NCBI GenBank assembly: GCA_963665775.2
Contig: CAXXTF010000002.1
Location: 832,001-896,000 of the forward strand
Length of the DNA: 64,000 nucleotides
Direction: 5' to 3'
DNA from: Dehalococcoidia bacterium
GTDB taxonomy: Bacteria; Chloroflexota; Dehalococcoidia; SM23-28-2; RBG-16-64-32
This document shows positions 5,703-43,311 of this stretch, one piece after another; position 1 is the first letter of the stretch, and each line of letters begins with the position of its first letter. Both the position numbers and the translations under genes were made by a program. The notes beneath the pieces are model-generated. The model had not been told where the DNA came from. It saw only the letters and a list, made by a program, of their open reading frames with translations, and ran no database searches.

Positions 5703-8470
5703 TCCCAGTCCGCGTCCTGGTACGAAACTTCCTCTGTTACAGCGAGATGGAAGACGGCACCCCTATCGAATTCGACTTCGAGGGGTCGCGGTTGTGGAGC
5801 ATCACCGGCGACAACGGTGCCGGCAAAAGCGCCATCTTCGATGCCATCACCTACGCCCTGTTCGGACAGCACCGGGGCGGGGCGCAGGATGACGCCCGGC
5901 TCATCCACAAGGGCGCTCTCGAGTGCGAAGCCACCTTCGAGTTCCGCCTCGACGAGCGCCTCTACCGCGTGCGCCGGACGGTAAGTCGGCGCCGAGGAAA
6001 GGCAGCCCAGGACCCGAAAACGTGGCAGGCTGCCTGGTTCGACCCAGACGCCGGAGACTGGAGGCCCATCCAGGAAACGGAGCGAGAGCGCGGCCTCCAG
6101 CGGTGGGTGCAGAACCAACTGGGCTTCGGCTATGAAACGTTCGTGGCGTCCATACTGCTTCTCCAGGGACAGAGCGATCAGCTTATCACCGCCCGGCCCA
6201 AGGCACGGTTCGAGATTCTGAGCGGGCTGCTGGACTTGCAGCCCTACGAGCGGCTGGAAACGGCAGCTCTTGCGCATATGAGATCGGCCCGGACCCAGGT
6301 TCAGAACCTCGATGCCCAACTGGCCGGCCTCCCAGCAGCCGTGGCAGAAGAGATGGAGGAGGCGCGCTCAGCCCTGCGGGCAGGGGAGGAAGCCCTTCAG
6401 AAAGCTCAGGCGAGTATGGCCCAGGCGGAGGTGCTGGTCAACGAGGCCACACGCTACGCTCAGTTGCAAACGGACTTGGCCGAGGCAAGCGACGCCCTGG
6501 CACAGACAGAGGCGCTGCTCCAGGACGCCGACCGCATCCGCCAGGAGTATCAGGAATGGCATCGGCTTTCAGAGGCGCTGCCGAAGCTAGGCGCTGCCCT
6601 GACGGATCTCCAGGAGAAGGATATCCAAGCGGCCCAAGCAGAGGAAGCAGGCGCCGCAGCCGCTGCCATCGATATGGAAGCGCTGGAACGCGCAAAGGCG
6701 GCGGCGGAGAAAGAGGAGCATCAGACGGAGCAGCGAGCCAGCGACCTACGCGTACAACACGACGAGCTGGCCCTGGCCCTGCCGCCGTTGCGCGAGATCC
6801 TTCAGCAGCGCAGTGAGCTCTCGGAGCGCGCGCAAGCCGCAGCCGAGGTAGGCGCAGCACACGAATGGGAGGCTCGCATCGCCCAGTTGGAGGACGATCT
6901 CCGAGGGCGGCAAGAAGAGCAGCGAAAGGCCGACGAGGAGCTGCGACAGGCGCTGGAGGCTGTAGCTCAAGCCGAGGCTGCCGTTGGGCAAGCGGAGCAG
7001 CAGCTGGTTGCCCGGCGAGAGGCGCAGGACGAGGCAGTCTGCTCGCGCTGCGGCCAACCGGTTGACCCTGAGCACATCCGGCGCGAGCTAGAGGACGCGG
7101 AACGGACCGTCGCTTTGGCCCAGGCACCGATGGAGGGCGCCAAACAGGACCGGCTCATAGCTGGCAGCGATGTGACGGCCGCGGCCGAGCGCGTGGAAAC
7201 GACGAGTCGGGAGATAGAGACTGCCCGTCACGGACTCGCCGCGTCTCGCCGGGCGGACGAAGAGCGGCAGCGGGCGCAGGCAAGACTGGACGCCGTCATC
7301 GGCGCCGCAGCGCAGGCACCGGCGGACCGGCGCGCCGCTGTTGCGGAGCGCCCGCTGGCTGGGGCCACCGCAGCTGTCGACGAACTTGATGAGCGAACCA
7401 GCGTACTGCGGGCCCGAATCCAGACGGCAGGCGAAATGGAGAGGAAGGCTCGCAAGGGTTATCGCGACGCCCAGCAGGCCTATCAGGATGCGCTTCGCAA
7501 CCGAGAACAGCTACAAGCCGATGCTCAGCGTCTGGAGGAGAAAGCCCAGGGATTTAGCAGACAGGCGGTGGTCCGGCTTAGCGGCCTGAATCCTGAGTGG
7601 TGCCGACGGGCTCTCGCACAAGACGAGCCGTTTGTTCGAGAACTCTCCACCCGGCGTTCTGCCCTGGAAGGCGTCGACAAACAGCATCGAGCCCTGGAAG
7701 GCGCCCTCGCCGAGCGGGGCCAGTTGGAGCCTCGTGTCCAGGAACTCCATCGCAGCGTCGAGGCGGTGAGACCGGGGCACCGCCTGCCATTAGGAGAGGC
7801 GGACAGCCGGCAAAGGGAGGCCCAGAGCCATCTGAGTGTCAGCCAGAGCCGTCGTGACGAGGCCAGGGAGACCTTTCGCCGCCTGGAAGAGACTCTCGAG
7901 CGCCGGCAGCAGATCGAGACCGAACAAACCGCTGCCAATCGCCGGCGCGCCCTTAACGCTCGCCTGGCCGACCTGTTTGGACGAAGGGGGCTTCAGGGCT
8001 ACCTGATGAACGCAGCGATCCAGGGAATCTCAGACCTGGCCAACGAAACCCTTGCCCGCATCTCCGCCGGTCAGCTCCAGCTCCAGATCGTACGACAGGC
8101 ATCGGCCGGCGGTGAGGAAGAGATCGTCATCCAGACCACGGACCTCGCTTCTAGCGACGACCCGCTCGACGTGCAGTTTATCTCAGGGAGCCAGAAGTTC
8201 CGCACCTCGGTGGCGCTGGCAGCGGGTATCGGCCAGTACGCTGGTCGAGGCGTAGGCAGCGTGCGTTCCCTCATCATCGATGAAGGATTCGGCAGCCTGG
8301 ACACTCAGGGCCGCCAGGAGATGATCGACGAGCTACGCAACCTGTCTGATCTCATGGACCGCGTCATTGTCGTCAGCCACCAGGAGGACTTCCAGGATCG
8401 CACGCTGTTCCCAACAGGGTACGTCCTGCGCAAGATCGGGCAGCGGACAGAGGTAGAGCGCTTTGTGTGA
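5699..8470 (+). CDS. sbcC: SbcC/Rad50 SMC-like ATPase
   Basis: Walker A GDNGAGKS, Q-loop LQGQ, long coiled coil with central CSRC zinc hook, signature ISGSQ, Walker B/D-loop IIDEGFGSLD, H-loop VSHQ; ATGA overlap. Confidence 0.93.
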   Translation: MIPVRVLVRNFLCYSEMEDGTPIEFDFEGSRLWSITGDNGAGKSAIFDAITYALFGQHRGGAQDDARLIHKGALECEATFEFRLDERLYRVRRTVSRRRGKAAQDPKTWQAAWFDPDAGDWRPIQETERERGLQRWVQNQLGFGYETFVASILLLQGQSDQLITARPKARFEILSGLLDLQPYERLETAALAHMRSARTQVQNLDAQLAGLPAAVAEEMEEARSALRAGEEALQKAQASMAQAEVLVNEATRYAQLQTDLAEASDALAQTEALLQDADRIRQEYQEWHRLSEALPKLGAALTDLQEKDIQAAQAEEAGAAAAAIDMEALERAKAAAEKEEHQTEQRASDLRVQHDELALALPPLREILQQRSELSERAQAAAEVGAAHEWEARIAQLEDDLRGRQEEQRKADEELRQALEAVAQAEAAVGQAEQQLVARREAQDEAVCSRCGQPVDPEHIRRELEDAERTVALAQAPMEGAKQDRLIAGSDVTAAAERVETTSREIETARHGLAASRRADEERQRAQARLDAVIGAAAQAPADRRAAVAERPLAGATAAVDELDERTSVLRARIQTAGEMERKARKGYRDAQQAYQDALRNREQLQADAQRLEEKAQGFSRQAVVRLSGLNPEWCRRALAQDEPFVRELSTRRSALEGVDKQHRALEGALAERGQLEPRVQELHRSVEAVRPGHRLPLGEADSRQREAQSHLSVSQSRRDEARETFRRLEETLERRQQIETEQTAANRRRALNARLADLFGRRGLQGYLMNAAIQGISDLANETLARISAGQLQLQIVRQASAGGEEEIVIQTTDLASSDDPLDVQFISGSQKFRTSVALAAGIGQYAGRGVGSVRSLIIDEGFGSLDTQGRQEMIDELRNLSDLMDRVIVVSHQEDFQDRTLFPTGYVLRKIGQRTEVERFV

Positions 8471-18848: not shown

Positions 18849-19544
18849 GTGGAACCTGATAGGGCGATGGTCATTGTGGCCCACCCCGACGACGTCGAAT
18901 TCCTGGCCGCCGGCACCGTGGCCCTGTGGACTAAGGGAGGGACGGCGGTCACATTCGTAATCGTCACGAACGGTGACAAGGGTTCGGACGATCCAGATAT
19001 GACCAGCGAGCGACTCGTCGTCGTTCGTCGAGGCGAGCAGGAGCGGGCGGCGGAAAGCCTCGAGGTCAAGAGGGTTCTATTCCTGGACTACGAGGATGGC
19101 ATGCTCGAACCGACCCTCGAACTCCGCCGTGACCTTGCCCGTGTCATACGCATGCACCAGCCACACACCGTCGTCACCTTCGACCCGACCTCCCGCTTCA
19201 TTAGCGAGAACTATCCCAACCACCCGGACCATCGCGCTACTGGGGACGCAACCATTGATGCGGTCTTCCCCAGCGCCCGCGACCGCCTGACGTTCCCGGA
19301 ACTGCTGGCCGACGGTCTGGAGCCCCACAAGGTCAAAGAGCTGTGGCTGGGACCCAGCATCTGCACAAACCACTGGACCGATATCGAGTCCGTCATCGGG
19401 CAGAAGATCGCGGCCCTCCGCCATCACGAGAGCCAGCTAGCCGAGCTGCCGTTGGAGGAGTTCATTCCCGAGATGGCACGCGCTCAGGCCGAGAAGAGCC
19501 CCTACACCCTCGCTGAGGGCTTCCGTCGCGTCGAATTGGGATAG
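18849..19544 (+). CDS. PIG-L/LmbE family deacetylase
   Basis: AHPDD, TNGDKG, NHPDH, HESQ. Confidence 0.93.
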   Translation: MEPDRAMVIVAHPDDVEFLAAGTVALWTKGGTAVTFVIVTNGDKGSDDPDMTSERLVVVRRGEQERAAESLEVKRVLFLDYEDGMLEPTLELRRDLARVIRMHQPHTVVTFDPTSRFISENYPNHPDHRATGDATIDAVFPSARDRLTFPELLADGLEPHKVKELWLGPSICTNHWTDIESVIGQKIAALRHHESQLAELPLEEFIPEMARAQAEKSPYTLAEGFRRVELG

Positions 19545-19743
19545 CGCTCGGCCGGTGGTCCGGCGGCGGGTCACTTGCGCTCATGGAACGTCGATCCAGA
19601 AGCCTACGAGGCTGCCCTACGGGACTCTCTAGCGTTGGCGACTCGGCCGCGCTAGGGCAGGGAGGTCGTCATCCGGCACGGTGCCGCTACTTTAGACTCA
19701 CGGGGACGACGCATCAGGTAAGGATCGGCAGCTCTCACTGCTT

Positions 19744-19762
19744 CGGCTCGGTCCCCGAGCCG
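19744..19762 (-). promoter_or_regulatory. Hairpin 11 nt after the TGA; candidate bacterial SECIS
   Basis: TGA-GAGCTGGATGA-CGGCTCGG-GGA-CCGAGCCG; G-rich apical loop; no U-tract. Confidence 0.45.
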
Positions 19763-19773
19763 TCATCCAGCTC

Positions 19774-19917
19774 TCAACATCCCGGCTCGCCACGATGTCC
19801 GCAACAGCTCGACCGCATGCGGATCTTGGTCAGATTATTGGCGATCAGCCGGCCTATCTTGCGTCCCAGCGGCATAGCTGCTCTCAAGTTCGCGAACGCA
19901 GATTTAAGGTTTGGCAT
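19774..19917 (-). CDS. 47-aa basic Cys-rich protein ending CCGHRGEPGC; candidate selenoprotein
   Basis: ATG at 19917 after GAGGAGCGAAGGA; MPNLKSAFANLRAAMPLGRKIGRLIANNLTKIRMRSSCCGHRGEPGC-TGA. Confidence 0.7.
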   Translation of the reverse strand: MPNLKSAFANLRAAMPLGRKIGRLIANNLTKIRMRSSCCGHRGEPGC

Positions 19918-19964
19918 TCCTTCGCTCCTCTGACTGCACGTGGGGGCCCTGCCCTTATGACCAG

Positions 19965-20290
19965 CTACTCTTCCAGCTCGATCTGCACAACCTGCCCCGC
20001 GGCCGAAGACTCCCGTACGGCATCCAGCACCTGCTGGCACCGAAAGCCATCGTGGAAGTTAGGACTGGCGGGCCGGCCACGCTGACCGCGTCCAAGCCAT
20101 CCATCTGGAGCATCTCTCGGTAGTCCGTGAACGCCTGTGGGATGCCAAACCGTTCCGCCGCCTCCCGGGCGCGCTCGGACCGGCGAGCGCATACCGCAAC
20201 GACCTCCAGCCCTTCAGACTGGAAGGCCGGGATGTGGACCCGTGCCCCAAAGCCAACGCCGATAACGCCAACTCGGGCTCCATCCGGCAT
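19965..20290 (-). pseudogene. Gfo/Idh/MocA oxidoreductase remnant with large internal deletion
   Basis: N-terminal Rossmann VGVIGVGFG...DAVSVAGPP joined out of frame to a family-typical C-terminus SPNFHDGFRCQQVLDAVRES. Confidence 0.8.
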
Positions 20291-20398
20291 TCGCCACCTC
20301 CATGACGCCTAGTAATGCCACCGCCGCAGCTTCGTGATAAGAACGCCGGGCCGGCGCCATCGGTGCCGCCAGAGGGGCGAGGCACATAGATCCGAATA

Positions 20399-20686
20399 TC
20401 ACAGCTCCAGGAACGGAAGAAAGGCCGGCTCTCCCTTCTTCGTTTCGGTGATGGTGACACGAGCTCTCTCGATGGCGGCATCCATCCGTTCCTTCTCGTC
20501 GCCAGCCTCCACTACGTTCTCTAACACCGCAAGAAGCTTTGGCGCAGATTCGTGGAGCACGCAATAGGATATGCCATGGACTTGTCCCTCTTCCGCCTCC
20601 CGGATAACGAAGCACCCACACGGCAGCTCAGCCTCTATGAGCCAGCTATGGTCCCTGTCCGTGAAGACCTCTCCTTCGTGACTCAT
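20399..20686 (-). CDS. 95-aa hypothetical protein with CGC and CxxH motifs
   Basis: AAGGAGGA RBS at good spacing to ATG 20686; LPCGC...YCVLHESAPKLL. Confidence 0.7.
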   Translation of the reverse strand: MSHEGEVFTDRDHSWLIEAELPCGCFVIREAEEGQVHGISYCVLHESAPKLLAVLENVVEAGDEKERMDAAIERARVTITETKKGEPAFLPFLEL

Positions 20687-20956
20687 TTCCATTCCTCCTT
20701 CCCGATCTCTTTCGATTGGCGCCGCAATTCTGGTCTCGCTGGAGAAATCCGGCAAACGCTCCCGCGGCCTCGTCAGCCGCCGGTAGACCGCTGGCACCAG
20801 TTGGCCGTTACAGATCCTCCCTCTCGGGTGGCGGATCGGCACTCCACGGCTACCATCCACACCCTATCGGGAGGTAATCCGGGGCTCAGGCGTGATGACG
20901 ATCAATATGGAGCAGGTCATCCTTGCGTCGCGGAGAGCGACGACGGCGGTCCGCCG

Positions 20957-21223
20957 CTACCCGCCGCCCATAGCAGGAATGAAGTGAATCTCGGAGTCCT
21001 CCTGGATCGGCTGCAACAAGCCCAGATGGGCCGTCTCTCCATCGATGGCCACAGCGATACCAGGTTGAATTTGTCCCGCCTCGTCTATCAGCTTTTCCTT
21101 CATGCCGGGGCAAATTTGGTCAAGTTGATTGATTACCTGGCGCAGCGTCAGGCCAGGCACCGTGATCTTCTCCGCGCCCCCGGCTAAGCCCTGGAGCTGG
21201 GGAGGGACCCAAACAACTGCCAT
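20957..21223 (-). CDS. MoaD/ThiS ubiquitin-like sulfur carrier
   Basis: 88 aa, beta-grasp pattern, C-terminal IPAMGGG. Confidence 0.9.
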   Translation of the reverse strand: MAVVWVPPQLQGLAGGAEKITVPGLTLRQVINQLDQICPGMKEKLIDEAGQIQPGIAVAIDGETAHLGLLQPIQEDSEIHFIPAMGGG

Positions 21224-21260: not shown

Positions 21261-21746
21261 TCATGAGGCCTTGCTCCTGATCATTTCGCCCGCCTGAAGG
21301 ACGGCCCTTACTATCTTGTCGTAACCCGTGCAGCGGCATAGGTTTCCGGCCAGCCATTCGCGGATCCGTTGCTCGTCCGCGTCAGGCTCCCTATCCAGGA
21401 GCACCTTTGCCGCGATGATGAACCCGGGGGTGCATATTCCGCACTGGAGGGCAGCCTGTTCCAGGAAGGCCTGCTGCACCGGGTGCAGCTCCTCCGGCGA
21501 TGCCACGCCTTCGATCGTGGTGACGCTTTTCCCCTCCAGTTCGGCAGCCAGAACGAGGCAGGAGTCGACCAGTCTTCCGTCCAGGATAACGCTGCAGGCG
21601 CCGCAATTGCCGTCGTTGCAGCCCTCCTTGGTGCCGGTCAGCCCCAGCACATCGCGCAAGACGTCCAGCAGGCTCTGGCGACTGTCGCACAGGAACTCTG
21701 CTTCGTTGCCATTAATACTGGTTCGGATATGTACCGTTTGAGTCAT
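21261..21746 (-). CDS. Mo-hydroxylase 2Fe-2S subunit (CoxS/XdhC-like)
   Basis: GCNDGNCGAC..C and QCGICTPG..NLCRCTGY. Confidence 0.95.
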   Translation of the reverse strand: MTQTVHIRTSINGNEAEFLCDSRQSLLDVLRDVLGLTGTKEGCNDGNCGACSVILDGRLVDSCLVLAAELEGKSVTTIEGVASPEELHPVQQAFLEQAALQCGICTPGFIIAAKVLLDREPDADEQRIREWLAGNLCRCTGYDKIVRAVLQAGEMIRSKAS

Positions 21747-22639
21747 CGTTCCCGCACCTCGTTCGCTCTCCGGATGGCGGTCCTAAGCGCCCTTTTCGTA
21801 AGGACGCCCACCAGATGGACCCGTTGGTGGGCGGTGCCCCGCATGTCGCTTATGGGACGAGCGGCGCCCTTGGCCGCCTCCGCCGCCTCCTCGATGGCGC
21901 CCTCGTTGGCCTCCTTGCCGACCAGCAACGCGCTCGCCTCGGTAGCGAAAATCGGGGTCGGGCCGACGGCCGCCAGGGCGATCCTAGCCGACCGAATATG
22001 GCCGTCGTCCAGGACCACGGAAGCCCCGACCCCCACCACCGCGATGTCCATCTCGTTCCGCGGAATGAATCGAAGATAATGGGCGCCGGAGTTCGGCCGG
22101 GGCGACGGGAACTTCACGGCGACCAGCAATTCGCCCTCCTCAAGCAACGTCCTCCCGGGGCCGGTGCAGAATTCTTCCACGGGCACACTCCGGCGACCCT
22201 TAGTCCCAGCGACCAGGCATGTCCCTTCCAGAGCGATGAGCGCGGGGATGGCGTCAGCGCTGGGAGATCCGTTACAGAGGTTTCCGCCCACGCTGGCCCG
22301 GTCCTGAATCTGCACGCTGCCGATCAGCGAAGCCGAATCGACGAGCGCCGGATATAGCCTGGCGATCGTTTCGTCCTCATAGATACGGTAGCAGGGCACG
22401 GCGGCACCCAGCGTGAGCCCGTCTCCTTCTGAATAAGACAGCTCGTTGAGTTCAGGAACGTTCTTCACATCCACCAAGCGTTCAACTTGATGGCGGCCGG
22501 CACGCATCTGGACAAGGATATCCGTCCCACCGGCCAAAATACGGGCCTTGGCGCCCTTCTCCGCCATCATGCTGACAGCTTCGTCCAAGCTCTTTGGCGC
22601 TACGTACTCTAATGGCTGCAGAAAACCCCTCCTTCTCAC
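21743..22639 (-). CDS. Mo-hydroxylase FAD subunit (CoxM-like)
   Basis: LAGGTD, IGSVQIQDRASVGGNLCNGSPSAD, PISDMRG; real start may be CTG 22621. Confidence 0.95.
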   Translation of the reverse strand: MRRRGFLQPLEYVAPKSLDEAVSMMAEKGAKARILAGGTDILVQMRAGRHQVERLVDVKNVPELNELSYSEGDGLTLGAAVPCYRIYEDETIARLYPALVDSASLIGSVQIQDRASVGGNLCNGSPSADAIPALIALEGTCLVAGTKGRRSVPVEEFCTGPGRTLLEEGELLVAVKFPSPRPNSGAHYLRFIPRNEMDIAVVGVGASVVLDDGHIRSARIALAAVGPTPIFATEASALLVGKEANEGAIEEAAEAAKGAARPISDMRGTAHQRVHLVGVLTKRALRTAIRRANEVRER

Positions 22640-22710: not shown

Positions 22711-25062
22711 TCATCCATGCCCGGCCCCTGACCCTGCCGACCGCGAACCAGCCCCGACCAGCCCGCTCTCCGCCTCCAGAGCTTCTAGGATCGCGCCGGG
22801 CGACATGGGTAGCTTGGCCATACGCTTCCCGGTAGCATGATAGATGGCATTCGCTATCGCAGCCATAGGCACTACGATAGGTATCTCCCCTACACCCCGG
22901 ACGCCAAGCGGGTGGCGCGGGTGCGGTACCTCTATCAGCACGGTATCGATCATTGGTACGTCCAGGCTGGTCGGCATCCGGTAATCGAGGAAGCTGGAGT
23001 TCAGCATCGTACCGTCATCGGAGTAGAAATACTCCTCGTTCAGCGCCCAGCCGATGCCCTGTACGCAGCCGCCCTGCAGCTGACCTTCCACATAGCTGGG
23101 ATGCACGGCCCGACCGGCGTCCATGAAGGCCGTGTAGCGAAGGATCTGCACCTTGCCGGTCTCAAGGTCTACTTCCAGGTCCACGATGTTGCCGCCGAAG
23201 GTAGGCCCGACACCGATGTTCTTGTTTGTCGCTGAGCAGGAGATCGGGCCGCCGGTGCTCATTAGCTTGCCCGCCAGCGCCTTGAAATCGATCTTCATCT
23301 CCGGGTTATTAGTGCAGATAAAGACGCCGTCCTCGAACTCGACCTCGTCTTCTGGCACTTCCCATAAGAGAGCGGCGCGGGCGATCATCCGCCGCTTGAC
23401 CTCTTCCGCGGCATCCATCGCCGCCAGTGTCGTGTCGAAGGCGACCCGACTGCCACCGGTGGCGCCGGACCAGCCTACCGCGTCGGTGTCTACCACCTGA
23501 GGTGTGACTTCTTCCGCAGTCAGCCCCAACACCTCAGCGGCCGCCATCGCCGTCGCGACTCGCGTACCACCAATGTCCACCGCCCCGCTCACCAGGCTCA
23601 TCGTGCCGTCGCTGTTTACATTCAGCGTAACGGAGGACGATCCTCCCGCGTTCCAGCGAAAACCTACAGCCACGCCCCGGCCGCGGCCAGGGCCATCGAG
23701 CGGCGCGCTGTAGTGGGGATGCGCTTTCATCGCCTCCGCCAGCTCCTTGTAGCCGATGCGGGGGAACGGCACCCCGCTGGCCATCCGGTCCCCCTCCTCG
23801 ACGGCGTTCTTCAAGCGGAACTCCACAGGGTCCATGCCTAGCTTCTCCGCCAGCTCGTCAATCACAGGCTCGACGGCAAAACAGGCCTGGGGATAGCCGG
23901 GCGCCCGGTAGGCCTGCACCCGCTGCTTGTTGGAAACGACATCGTACCCGTCCACCAGCAGGTTATCCATCTTGTATGGGCCCAGGCCGCCAGTGGCGCC
24001 ACCGCCCGCGGCCACGCCGGGAAACGCCCCCGCCTCGTACGCCAGGTAGAGCTGCGCCGCCGTAATGACGCCGTCTCGCGAGGCTCCAATCTTGCATCTC
24101 ATATGGCTGCCGGGGGCCGGGCCTGTACCCTCGAATATCTCGGTGCGGGTCATGATAATTCTGACGGGACGGCCGCTCTTTCGCGAAAGGATGGCCACGA
24201 CGGGGTCCAGGTAACTGACAAGCTTTCCACCGAAGCCGCCGCCGATCTCTTGCGGGATCACTCGAACCACCGATTCCGGTATGCCGAGTATGGCCGCGGT
24301 GGATTCACGGACGCCGAACTGGTTCTGAGTGCTAGTCCAGATGGTCAAGCGGCCATCGAGCGCCCAGTGCGCGGTTGAGGCATGGGGCTCGATATAGCCC
24401 TGGTGAACGGTCTCGGTCGTAAACTCACGCTCGACGATGATGTCGGCCTGTTTGAACCCCACCTCAACATCGCCGCGCTTGAACTGGAGGTGGCCGGCGA
24501 TATTACTCGTTTTTCCGGTGTCGCTCCCTCGCTCGAACCGCTGAACGCGGAACATTGTGGTCAGGTTCTCATGAAGTATGGGCGCGTCCTCTCGCATCGC
24601 CGCCCGGACATCGAAGACAGCCGGCAGCACTTCGTACTCCACCTCGATGAGGTTGAGCGCCTCCTCAGCGATGTGCGTAGTAGTGGCCGCCACTGCCGCC
24701 ACGGCCTGACCTTTGTACAGCACCTTTTCGCTCGCGAGGATGTTCTCCGCTAGCACTCTGGCGCTGCCCATGGTCTCCGAAAAGTCCATGAGCTTCTCCT
24801 CCACGATGGGAAAGTCCCGAGACGTGGCTATAGCCGTCACGCCGGCCAGCGCCTCTGCTTTACCCGTATTAATGGACTTTATGCGGGCGTGGGCGTGAGG
24901 ACTGCGGAGGATCTTTCCGTGCAGTAAACCAGCCATCTGAACATCGGGGGCAAACTTGGCTCGCCCTGTGACCTTGTCCAGGCCATCATGTCTGATCGGT
25001 CTGGTCCCAATAACCTTGAACCCGTTGGCACGTTGGCCGTTCGCGTCTCCCTTTTTGGCCAC
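22711..25062 (-). CDS. Xanthine dehydrogenase-family molybdopterin-binding subunit (CoxL-like)
   Basis: RSPHAHA, QGYIEPH, IGGGFGGK, AYRAPG, GGSR, VEGQLQGG, GVGE; GAGGAGG RBS before GTG. Confidence 0.95.
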   Translation of the reverse strand: MAKKGDANGQRANGFKVIGTRPIRHDGLDKVTGRAKFAPDVQMAGLLHGKILRSPHAHARIKSINTGKAEALAGVTAIATSRDFPIVEEKLMDFSETMGSARVLAENILASEKVLYKGQAVAAVAATTTHIAEEALNLIEVEYEVLPAVFDVRAAMREDAPILHENLTTMFRVQRFERGSDTGKTSNIAGHLQFKRGDVEVGFKQADIIVEREFTTETVHQGYIEPHASTAHWALDGRLTIWTSTQNQFGVRESTAAILGIPESVVRVIPQEIGGGFGGKLVSYLDPVVAILSRKSGRPVRIIMTRTEIFEGTGPAPGSHMRCKIGASRDGVITAAQLYLAYEAGAFPGVAAGGGATGGLGPYKMDNLLVDGYDVVSNKQRVQAYRAPGYPQACFAVEPVIDELAEKLGMDPVEFRLKNAVEEGDRMASGVPFPRIGYKELAEAMKAHPHYSAPLDGPGRGRGVAVGFRWNAGGSSSVTLNVNSDGTMSLVSGAVDIGGTRVATAMAAAEVLGLTAEEVTPQVVDTDAVGWSGATGGSRVAFDTTLAAMDAAEEVKRRMIARAALLWEVPEDEVEFEDGVFICTNNPEMKIDFKALAGKLMSTGGPISCSATNKNIGVGPTFGGNIVDLEVDLETGKVQILRYTAFMDAGRAVHPSYVEGQLQGGCVQGIGWALNEEYFYSDDGTMLNSSFLDYRMPTSLDVPMIDTVLIEVPHPRHPLGVRGVGEIPIVVPMAAIANAIYHATGKRMAKLPMSPGAILEALEAESGLVGAGSRSAGSGAGHG

Positions 25063-41943: not shown

Positions 41944-43311
41944 TCAGGCCAGGGCCGTCTTTAGGGCAGCGATGAGGGCGCGGTCGTCATCGGGCCGCAC
42001 GGTGCGCGGGTCGAACAGGAGCAAGTCGCGCTCGATGCGAGCGACGACGGGGGGGCTGCCGGTGCGGAGGCCACGGGCCAGGTCGCTCAGGTAAGCGCCA
42101 TCGCCGGGGAAGGCCATCAATCGGGTCGGGAGGCTCTCTTCGGGGAGGCTGCCACCGCCGATCATGGAGCGGCCGTCCACGACGCGGGCGGGAGGGCCCA
42201 GGGCGCGGGCCCAGCGGCCGGCGCGACGCCGGATCGCCGCCAGGGGAGTGGAGATCATGCGCCAGACGGGAACCTTCTCCAGCGCCTCGCCGCGCAGGTA
42301 GTGGAGCAGGGTGGCCGCCAGCCCGGCAACGCTGGCCTTGTCCATGCGCACGGCCCGGGCCAGCGGGTGCCGCCGCAGCAGGTCGATCAGATCGGCGCCG
42401 CCGACGATGACGCCGGCCTGGGGACCGCCCAGAAGCTTATCGCCGGAGAACAGGGTGAGATCGGACCCCGCGCTAAGGCTCTCCTGCACGGTCGGCTCCG
42501 CGGCCAGGCCGAACGCGGCCGTATCCAGAAGGCAGCCGGAGCCGATATCGTCCAGGACAAGCAGACCATGCTCGTGAGCCAGACGGGCGAGGTCGCTGAG
42601 GGAGGCCGACTCGGTGAAGCCGATGATACGGAAGTTGCTGGCGTGGATGCGCATCAAGGCAACGGTGTCGGGCGTGATGGCCGACTCGTAGTCGCGCAGG
42701 TTGGTGCGGTTGGTGGTGCCCACCTCGACCAGCCGCGCGCCGGACTGGCGCAGGACATCTGGAATGCGGAAGCCGCCGCCGATCTCGACGGCCTGGCCGC
42801 GGGAGATGATGACCTCACCGGCACCGGCAAGGGCGGAGAGGGCCAGCAGAAGGGCGGAGGCGTTGTTATTGACGGCGATAGCCGCGGGGGCGCCGGTGAC
42901 CTGGCGGAGGAGCTCCTCCAGGTGGAGATGGCGGGAGCCCCGCTCGCCGGCAGCCAAGTCAAATTCCAGGTTGGAGTAACCGCGGGCGACGGCGCCCATG
43001 GCAGCGATGGCGTCGTCCGAGAGGGGGGCGCGACCCAGGTTGGTGTGAATGATGACGCCGGTGGCGTTGATCACGGGCCGCAGCGACGGGCGGAAAAGCG
43101 TGTCGGCCAGACCCAGCACCGTCGCCACGATCTGCTCCTCGCCGGGAGCCGGGAGCCCCTGGGCGATCGAGGCGCGCGCCGTCTCCAGGGCCTCCCGCGC
43201 CAGTTGCCTGACGAGGGAAGCCGCCTGGCCATCGCCCAGGGCGCGGATGCGCTGATGAGCCAAGAGCCGGTCGACTGAGGGGAGGGTGCGGTATGGGTTA
43301 TCGGCGGTCAT
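41944..43311 (-). CDS. selA: L-seryl-tRNA(Sec) selenium transferase
   Basis: VINATGVIIHTNLGRAPL, YSNLEFDL..GERGSR, VNNNA, EIGGGFRIPD, EVGTTNRT, FSGDKLLGGPQAG. Confidence 0.97.
   Translation of the reverse strand: MTADNPYRTLPSVDRLLAHQRIRALGDGQAASLVRQLAREALETARASIAQGLPAPGEEQIVATVLGLADTLFRPSLRPVINATGVIIHTNLGRAPLSDDAIAAMGAVARGYSNLEFDLAAGERGSRHLHLEELLRQVTGAPAAIAVNNNASALLLALSALAGAGEVIISRGQAVEIGGGFRIPDVLRQSGARLVEVGTTNRTNLRDYESAITPDTVALMRIHASNFRIIGFTESASLSDLARLAHEHGLLVLDDIGSGCLLDTAAFGLAAEPTVQESLSAGSDLTLFSGDKLLGGPQAGVIVGGADLIDLLRRHPLARAVRMDKASVAGLAATLLHYLRGEALEKVPVWRMISTPLAAIRRRAGRWARALGPPARVVDGRSMIGGGSLPEESLPTRLMAFPGDGAYLSDLARGLRTGSPPVVARIERDLLLFDPRTVRPDDDRALIAALKTALA

Follow-up and report, generated by a model that had tools for sequence, protein, structure and literature searches.

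The small gene and its in-frame UGA

A 64,000-nucleotide stretch of a Dehalococcoidia genome (GenBank assembly GCA_963665775.2, contig CAXXTF010000002.1, positions 832,001 to 896,000; this whole stretch is called the window, and its coordinates are used below) carries on its minus strand a very short open reading frame (ORF) that ends in a Cys codon followed by TGA and a hairpin. From comparison of the DNA with that of its homologues, the locus is very probably a real gene, monocistronic, whose product is a selenoprotein of 60 residues with selenocysteine (Sec, U) at position 48; it belongs to a widespread family that has Sec and Cys forms. The first 47 codons (the coordinates of all features are collected in Table 1) encode the peptide MPNLKSAFANLRAAMPLGRKIGRLIANNLTKIRMRSSCCGHRGEPGC, which begins with MPNLKSAF, ends with SSCCGHRGEPGC and has CCGHRGEPGC at its C-terminus. 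When the TGA is read through, residue 47 is followed by U-ELDDGSGTEPKQ, and the product is 60 amino acids long. The frame of this tail is preserved in related genomes (EVDDGSGTEPKQ... and EAERGSRGEPTQ...).

The TGA is separated by an 11-nt spacer (19773-19763) from a perfect stem, in which CGGCTCGG (19762-19755) pairs with CCGAGCCG (19751-19744) around the loop GGA (19754-19752). The hairpin is not followed by a U-tract, and no terminator-like site was found between 19500 and 20400. These elements had been listed, together with a ribosome-binding site and an ATG, in a first-pass annotation made from the sequence alone; all of them were confirmed on the sequence, and the predicted 60-residue read-through product with its stop at 19735 was confirmed by translation. 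For the lower part of the hairpin the suggested GCTG/CAGT pairing could form in principle; RNAfold picks a different one. On the opposite strand an ORF of 116 amino acids (19583-19933, plus strand) overlaps the selenoprotein gene and is probably no gene in its own right; such antisense ORFs form clusters across the homologous loci (clusters 0 and 2) only because the sense gene is conserved.

Homologues, codon 48 and the hairpin

A DNA search of 41 related genomes yielded 5 further copies, in which conservation extends past the TGA and across the hairpin. All 6 copies, that of the window included, have the order PGC-TGA-GAR, 9 nt, and a 7-bp stem whose loop is GGA or GTG. The peptide of the window is 62-72% identical to those of the relatives and has kept every invariant residue. 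A word-based protein search returned only the protein itself at similar length, plus two over-extended ORF calls ending in ...CCGHRGEPGC. A profile made from five read-through translations (A1, E up to 0.001) matched 290 representative clusters among 1.84 billion proteins and 80 loci in species-representative genomes (83 copies, two of the loci holding two and three). The depositors labelled the holders as Dehalococcoidia, Anaerolineae, Chloroflexia, Syntrophorhabdaceae or 'delta proteobacterium', Nitrospirae, Acidimicrobiia, Thermoleophilia, Gaiellales and Coriobacteriia/Anaerosomatales; by record titles the family thus spans four phyla, plus metagenome contigs. A later profile search gave 978 clusters at 90% identity. 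The best 120 of these all bear the source name "hypothetical protein", none has a Pfam domain and most end at the UGA; the database entries of the family are hypothetical proteins of roughly 47-50 amino acids, cut at this codon. In the ESM Atlas only Chloroflexota clusters without names were found, all with scores <0.9.

In an even sample of the phylum Chloroflexota, which takes in the unpublished genome G362, 43 of 401 genomes had a match (about 11%); no other result given here depends on G362. TGA forms are present in five complete, single-contig genomes belonging to one genus of the same class (G147, G159, G222, G267 and G366). Thirty-nine of the 44 matched places contain the TGA, and the 5 without it were read individually: G231 and G116 are Cys forms, G152 is a TGA form in which the match stopped short, in G140 the frame is disturbed, and G443 is not a family member. 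In an alignment of 79 sequences the residues N27, C38, C39, G46 and C47 are invariant, and position 48 was always Sec or Cys among the copies examined.

The codon after PGC was TGA in 83 of 83 copies at the 80 genome loci, including the low-G+C Nitrospirae locus L046. Metagenome contigs were scanned with a second alignment (A2, six Cys forms) aimed at the DNA of Cys forms, and the 80 loci obtained had TGA (65), TGT (10) or TGC (5) and in no case TAA or TAG. The pooled set of window, genome and metagenome copies, from which L037, L134, L150 and L170 had been dropped for having less than 63 nt of downstream sequence, comprised 160 copies, or 156 after removal of duplicates. Among these unique copies the codon was TGA in 142 and a Cys codon in 14 (TGT 10, TGC 4), and none had TAA or TAG, the codons that a peptide simply ending in PGC could have used freely. 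The stops that end the read-through tails of the TGA forms are TGA (60), TAG (45) and TAA (35). Since all three stops are used at the tail ends and TGA alone after PGC, UGA is not interchangeable with UAA or UAG at this position.

The sequence beyond codon 48 is similar in the two forms. In 115/142 TGA forms E or Q comes next, and 13/14 Cys forms have E there. Tails with at least 3 His were found in frame 0 of 26/142 TGA forms, vs 6 and 2 in the other two frames, and His-rich tails follow Cys (P0007, P0045, P0063, P0065, P0090) and Sec (L064, L102) alike. The two genome Cys forms end as ...GEPGCCE-stop (G231) and ...GQPGCCATGSCSIGPEHPH-stop (G116). Some database proteins continue past position 48, with C or W at that place; the W forms are most simply explained as TGA codons that the gene caller read under another code. 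Tail length varies from 1 to 50 codons or more, and some tails are of just 1-4 codons. Such minimal tails would fit a rival reading in which translation simply ends at the TGA and yields a Cys-rich peptide of 47 residues, and in which the hairpin serves as a terminator, stabilises the mRNA or is another 3' element. TGA is a common stop in G+C-rich genomes, and most database entries do end at PGC, as drawn by gene callers. However, an ordinary stop does not account for TGA in 142/142 non-Cys copies while the true stops are mixed, nor for the 14 copies in which a Cys codon stands at exactly this place and the tail runs on in frame. The hairpin, described next, is absent from the Cys forms, lacks a U-tract and lies at a fixed distance from the UGA. 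Taken together, these points make the rival reading highly improbable.

The folding energy of the 54 nt after the UGA, compared with mononucleotide shuffles, discriminated poorly (median z -1.08 in TGA forms), therefore position-specific hairpin tests were used instead. In the first of these a perfect stem of at least 5 bp had to enclose a loop of 3-7 nt starting at position 19-31, counted from the U of UGA. Such a hairpin was present in 128/142 TGA forms and 2/14 Cys forms; the controls gave 673/2840 shuffles (24%) and 207 of the 727 TGA stops of long ORFs (250 codons or more) in the same genome. GT occurred in the loop of 103/142 TGA forms, 0/14 Cys forms and 4% of both controls. Eight of the 14 TGA forms that failed this test have a 4-bp stem around a GGTC loop. 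The second test was stricter. As summarised in PMC13188914, the bacterial selenocysteine insertion sequence (bSECIS) model of Zhang and Gladyshev has a loop of 3-9 nt, a stem of 4-16 bp, a G in the first two loop positions, a distance of 16-37 nt from the UGA and an energy of -7.5 kcal/mol or lower. These constraints were applied with our own script, not with bSECISearch, to perfect stems only, no bulges being allowed. Under these rules 104/142 TGA forms and 0/14 Cys forms passed, as did 74/1420 shuffles (5%) and 52/727 of the ordinary TGA stops (7%). The UGA-to-loop spacing in the 104 passing copies is 16-22 nt. The hairpin of the window is among them (-13.9 kcal/mol, 19 nt from UGA to loop, 8 bp, G first in the loop), and it is more than a chance structure, because such elements follow 104 of the 142 family TGAs vs 52 of 727 ordinary stops.

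Pairing in the stem is also maintained by compensatory changes. Across 18 close relatives, aligned without gaps, 97.6% of cells pair, and 4 of the 7 pairs have changed on both sides (GC to CG, CG to UA and GC to AU). None of 500 shuffles matched these values, and registers slid along the alignment pair to 20-44%. The kinship of the 18 sequences means that the shuffles overstate the significance; the slide control and the contrast with the Cys forms are unaffected by it. The element resembles the E. coli fdhF-type SECIS in lying directly downstream of the UGA inside the frame, and in its small loop with G first, commonly GG or GU. It differs in that in part of the family, where the tails are of 1-4 codons, the stop lies before or inside the hairpin and leaves some or all of the SECIS 3' to the frame, and in that the loop of the window, GGA, has no U.

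The genome of the window (G000; 2.35 Mb, 2 contigs) encodes tRNA-Sec, selA, selB and selD, and the presence of selA in the window, claimed in the first-pass annotation, was borne out by the TIGR00474 match (Table 1). The selD gene (C2:1214863-1215795) is of the Sec type, with an in-frame TGA at the active site (...LASCAG-U-AGKAGAE). Its UGA is followed by two hairpins. The first, which starts 12 nt downstream of the UGA, has a 5-bp stem and a TGAA loop. The second starts about 26 nt downstream and combines a 7-bp stem (AGCGCAG/CUGCGCU) with a GUC loop, similar to the GUC/GUG loops that are frequent among members of the new family. A second copy of selD (C2:1465008-1465940, minus strand) is of the Cys type (...LAARAGCASKTGAE...) and is possibly a pseudogene, as a TAG stands in frame about 20 codons downstream. 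Outside the window, at C2:1019767-1019857, ARAGORN reported a tRNA-like gene of undetermined identity with the two-base anticodon call '(ac)'. As selA was found in 39/41 of the related genomes, its co-occurrence with the small gene within the order is uninformative. In 50 genomes of other lineages that have TGA forms selA was detected in 48, with 47 matches above the cut-off. Of the two without a selA match, G069 has a tRNA-Sec that exceeds the threshold, part of selB at the edge of a contig and a selD with TGA, and G072 likewise has a TGA-containing selD; all 50 checked genomes thus show Sec use. Among the two Cys-form genomes, G231 (98% complete) has no selA match, and in G116 selA is present.

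Downstream structure stimulates stop-codon read-through in other systems, and a hairpin of this kind could in principle help near-cognate decoding to place one of the standard residues Trp, Cys or Arg at the UGA instead of Sec. We consider this scarcely credible here: Sec use is evident in 50/50 TGA-form genomes (selA in 48, a TGA-containing selD in the other two), the hairpins fit the SelB-type bSECIS model in their G-first loop, spacing and energy, and the natural replacement at position 48 is Cys only.

The proposal of a new selenoprotein put forward in the first-pass annotation is thus supported on each side: by the alternation of TGA and Cys, by a covarying hairpin that accompanies the TGA and is missing from the Cys forms, and by the Sec machinery of the holders. 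SelB-dependent insertion of Sec at residue 48 can be predicted from these patterns with high confidence. In the proposed mechanism the hairpin starting 11 nt after the UGA would act during translation as a bacterial SECIS and recruit SelB carrying Sec-tRNA(Sec), the UGA would then be decoded as selenocysteine, and translation would continue for 12 codons to the second TGA.

Genomic surroundings

Table 1. Features of the small gene and of its surroundings in the window
Feature	Position	Strand	Basis or remark
Shine-Dalgarno-like GGAG	19925..19928	-	direct sequence reading; ATG (19917) 7 nt further on
First 47 codons	19777..19917	-	ORF list and translation; ATG at 19917
In-frame TGA, read as Sec residue 48 (predicted)	19774..19776	-	homologue codon counts
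Post-Sec tail ELDDGSGTEPKQ, residues 49-60	19738..19773	-	12 codons; the mRNA here also carries the putative SECIS
Stop codon TGA ending the 60-residue product	19735..19737	-	translation
SECIS-like hairpin	19744..19762	-	8-bp stem, GGA apical loop
selA (selenocysteine synthase)	41959..43293 (G000:C2:873959-875293)	-	TIGR00474, 536.5 bits, over cut-off
Molybdenum hydroxylase subunit, MoCoBD_1/2	22711-25062	-	Pfam match; upstream of small gene
Molybdenum hydroxylase subunit, FAD_binding_5/CO_deh_flav_C	21743-22639	-	Pfam match; upstream of small gene
Molybdenum hydroxylase subunit, Fer2_2	21261-21746	-	Pfam match; upstream of small gene
ThiS/MoaD-family ORF	20957-21223	-	upstream of small gene
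153-residue ORF	20399-20860	-	between ThiS/MoaD-like gene and oxidoreductase remnant; no Pfam/NCBIfam match
Gfo/Idh/MocA oxidoreductase remnant	19955-20290	-	last element upstream of small gene
PIG-L family gene	18849-19544		converges on small gene from the other side

The first-pass annotation had placed the small gene downstream of molybdenum hydroxylase and MoaD genes. The position on the same strand is correct; the association is local to this genome, as these families do not recur beside the homologues. Nor do the oxidoreductase and PIG-L families recur there, so the small gene appears to stand alone, as a monocistronic unit. The element immediately upstream, of the Gfo/Idh/MocA type, appears to have lost its middle through an internal deletion: residues 6-76 of its 111-aa ORF match the NAD-binding (Rossmann) domain, and the final 36 positions of the C-terminal domain are found in a separate frame (19965-20192). 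Two metatranscriptome contigs end within this remnant.

With a broken gene in this position, the family could be real and yet the copy in the window silent or decaying. A scan of 19500-20400 yielded no sigma-70-like promoter, which would agree with such a state, but it covered one promoter type and expects about 0.1 matches by chance, so the null result says little. Moreover, the ORF, ribosome-binding site, UGA, hairpin and tail are all intact, and the identity to the relatives and the retained invariant residues described above also speak against decay. Decay of the small gene is improbable.

Several points weigh against reading the locus as a functional selenoprotein gene. The homologue copies are related to each other, hence the counts given above are of non-independent events. 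The loop of the window lacks the GU that 103/142 relatives have, and 38/142 TGA forms fail the strict no-bulge test. The decayed oxidoreductase gene alongside indicates that the neighbourhood is eroding. A look-up of public runs gave two metatranscriptome runs with small shares of the stretch; their contigs span 20116-20300 with the ORF outside, which is no evidence either way.

The flanks of the homologues were compared by all-against-all clustering of 2489 ORFs from 160 loci, and no partner gene emerged; the largest clusters were the antisense ORFs of the peptide gene and the peptide gene itself. When 120 ORFs lying downstream on the same strand were compared with Pfam, no family occurred in more than 14. 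Many different families were detected, among them GGACT (14), ExoIII-like (6), heliorhodopsin (6), rubrerythrin/ferritin (5), TspO (4), Fe/Mn superoxide dismutase (3), ArsP_1 permease halves (2), MsrA-MsrB (1) and flavodiiron-like (1). Within 3.2 kb, clusters named from reading of their representatives and not by family scan corresponded to a P-type ATPase (11 loci), a SufC-like ATPase (12) and a thioredoxin-reductase-like flavoprotein (8). Taken as raw counts, the metal- and oxidative-stress-related neighbours are a lead and not an enrichment.

In 11 of the 160 loci (L120, L123, L125, L129, L132, L149, L151, L156, L157, L158 and L165) a desulforedoxin-like ORF of 40-53 residues (GEKYRCNVCGNEV...GGGTLVCCGEDM) starts 51-56 nt after the Sec codon. 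A GGACT/AIG2-like gene follows this ORF in 10 of the 11, and the SECIS-like hairpin of this subclade immediately precedes the ribosome-binding site of the next gene. Some Anaerolineae contigs carry more than one copy of the small gene: L044 has two, and L048 has three (PGC motif near 470, 2005 and 4108). On L048 two copies are each followed directly by a duplicated half-size permease gene of the ArsP_1 family, and one copy has a TspO/MBR gene downstream; an ORF resembling, by eye, an ArsR-type regulator lies at 5816-6154.

The small size of the product, the multiple copies on such contigs and the presence of a conserved N-terminal part before a Cys-rich C-terminus are features that could also belong to the precursor of a modified selenopeptide, either a ribosomally synthesised and post-translationally modified peptide (RiPP) or a selenobacteriocin-like one, with the conserved N-terminus serving as leader. 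The first-pass annotation had mentioned a RiPP-like peptide as a fallback. This idea found no support: no radical-SAM, cyclase, protease or export gene, nor any other conserved neighbour, recurs at the 160 loci, no match to TIGR04081 or another NCBIfam model was obtained, and the most conserved part of the protein is the supposed core, with the tail as the variable part. We regard a RiPP precursor as very unlikely.

Novelty and possible function

Ten members, Sec and Cys forms, were compared with Pfam-A and NCBIfam 20.0 at E up to 10, and none gave a match except L064, whose His-rich tail matched UreE and ZrgA below the curated cut-offs, and which gave Hormone_6 at E 0.57. Table 1 of a 2026 review (PMC13188914) catalogues 119 selenoprotein families or subfamilies, nearly all with Pfam, NCBIfam, TIGRFAM or CDD identifiers. 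None of the families in that table was identified as the present one, families with CDD or PTHR identifiers only lying outside the scan. Previously reported selenoprotein families are also compiled in BSepDB (PMC13326102). Literature searches with the motif strings gave only unrelated papers, and searches for selenoprotein together with Dehalococcoidia or Chloroflexota gave no description of the family, supplementary tables being outside their scope. We conclude that the window very probably carries a genuine selenoprotein gene that had escaped annotation, representing a large Sec/Cys family that is apparently new within a well-known type of system.

The nearest parallels are the selenoproteins with a CU motif, which are likewise short, cut at the CU site in databases and accompanied by Cys-form relatives. 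SaoC, KCU-star, MbdU, SaoL, HgcA and others of these families have NCBIfam models, and none was matched. The present family differs from them in having CCG[HN]xGEPGC-U after a basic helix with no sequence match at E up to 10, in its variable, often His-rich tail, and in lacking a conserved Sao-like gene neighbourhood. Two other comparisons concern the arrangement of Cys and Sec. Desulforedoxin and rubredoxin, with their Fe(Cys)4 sites, are also tiny proteins with four closely spaced Cys ligands, and desulforedoxin uses a vicinal Cys-Cys pair. The four candidate ligands here would be C38, C39, C47 and U48, the first three of which are invariant; but there is no sequence similarity and no CxxC knuckle, one ligand would be Sec, and metal binding is putative. 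Animal thioredoxin reductase has a C-terminal Gly-Cys-Sec-Gly redox tail. Both proteins have G-C-U in a flexible segment at the C-terminus, where a vicinal selenenylsulfide could form; unlike the reductase, the small protein has no flavoprotein domain, U is followed by E/Q and a tail, and a second pair, CC, lies seven residues upstream.

An AlphaFold2 model based on the 79-sequence alignment has helices at 4-11 and 17-34 and the Cys loop as low-confidence coil. Judged from the sequence, the longer helix is basic and amphipathic, with a broad hydrophobic face. In the motif C38-C39-G-H-x-G-E-P-G-C47-U48 the CC and CU pairs are seven residues apart in a Gly/Pro-rich loop. A biochemical function can be proposed with low confidence, from the CC...CU motif. 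The model, at a mean predicted local distance difference test score (pLDDT) of 60.7, is itself of low confidence; this, the lack of a conserved neighbour at the 160 loci and the lack of likeness to any family of known function in the Pfam-A and NCBIfam scans all tell against a specific assignment.

CC and CU motifs of other selenoprotein systems have been interpreted as soft-metal ligands and argued to suggest heavy-metal binding (Haft and Gwadz, bioRxiv 10.1101/2022.07.06.499078). The His-rich tails and the scattered metal- and oxidative-stress-related neighbours point the same way, and the metal-binding role suggested in the first-pass annotation is plausible. The CC/CU head would either bind a metal ion or cycle between thiol/selenol and (seleno)disulfide states, with the helix anchoring it to the membrane surface or to a partner. 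That the CC-x7-CU head is a metal site we propose only tentatively, and a pure thiol/selenol redox role is slightly less probable. A more specific form of the former, a mononuclear centre with three thiolates and one selenolate, in effect a seleno-analogue of rubredoxin or desulforedoxin carried on an amphipathic helix and serving as electron carrier or chaperone, is unlikely.

Annotation errors are systematic in selenoprotein genes, whose UGA is taken for a stop codon. Recognition of this family would add one entry to the approximately 119 prokaryotic selenoprotein families and would correct many annotations in Chloroflexota, Actinomycetota, Syntrophorhabdaceae and Nitrospirota. The many variants of the SECIS, some of them beyond the stop codon, offer tests of the rules of SelB recognition. 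Since the protein is very small, the CC...CU chemistry is approachable on a synthetic or recombinant peptide, and the natural Sec and Cys forms allow direct comparison. If the seleno-analogue reading is true, the head would sit on a membrane- or partner-binding helix and the protein, one of a widespread and hitherto unrecognised class of micro-selenoproteins, would be a small electron carrier or metal chaperone, with a role in the oxidative-stress and metal-homeostasis networks of anaerobic Chloroflexota, Actinomycetota, Desulfobacterota and Nitrospirota.

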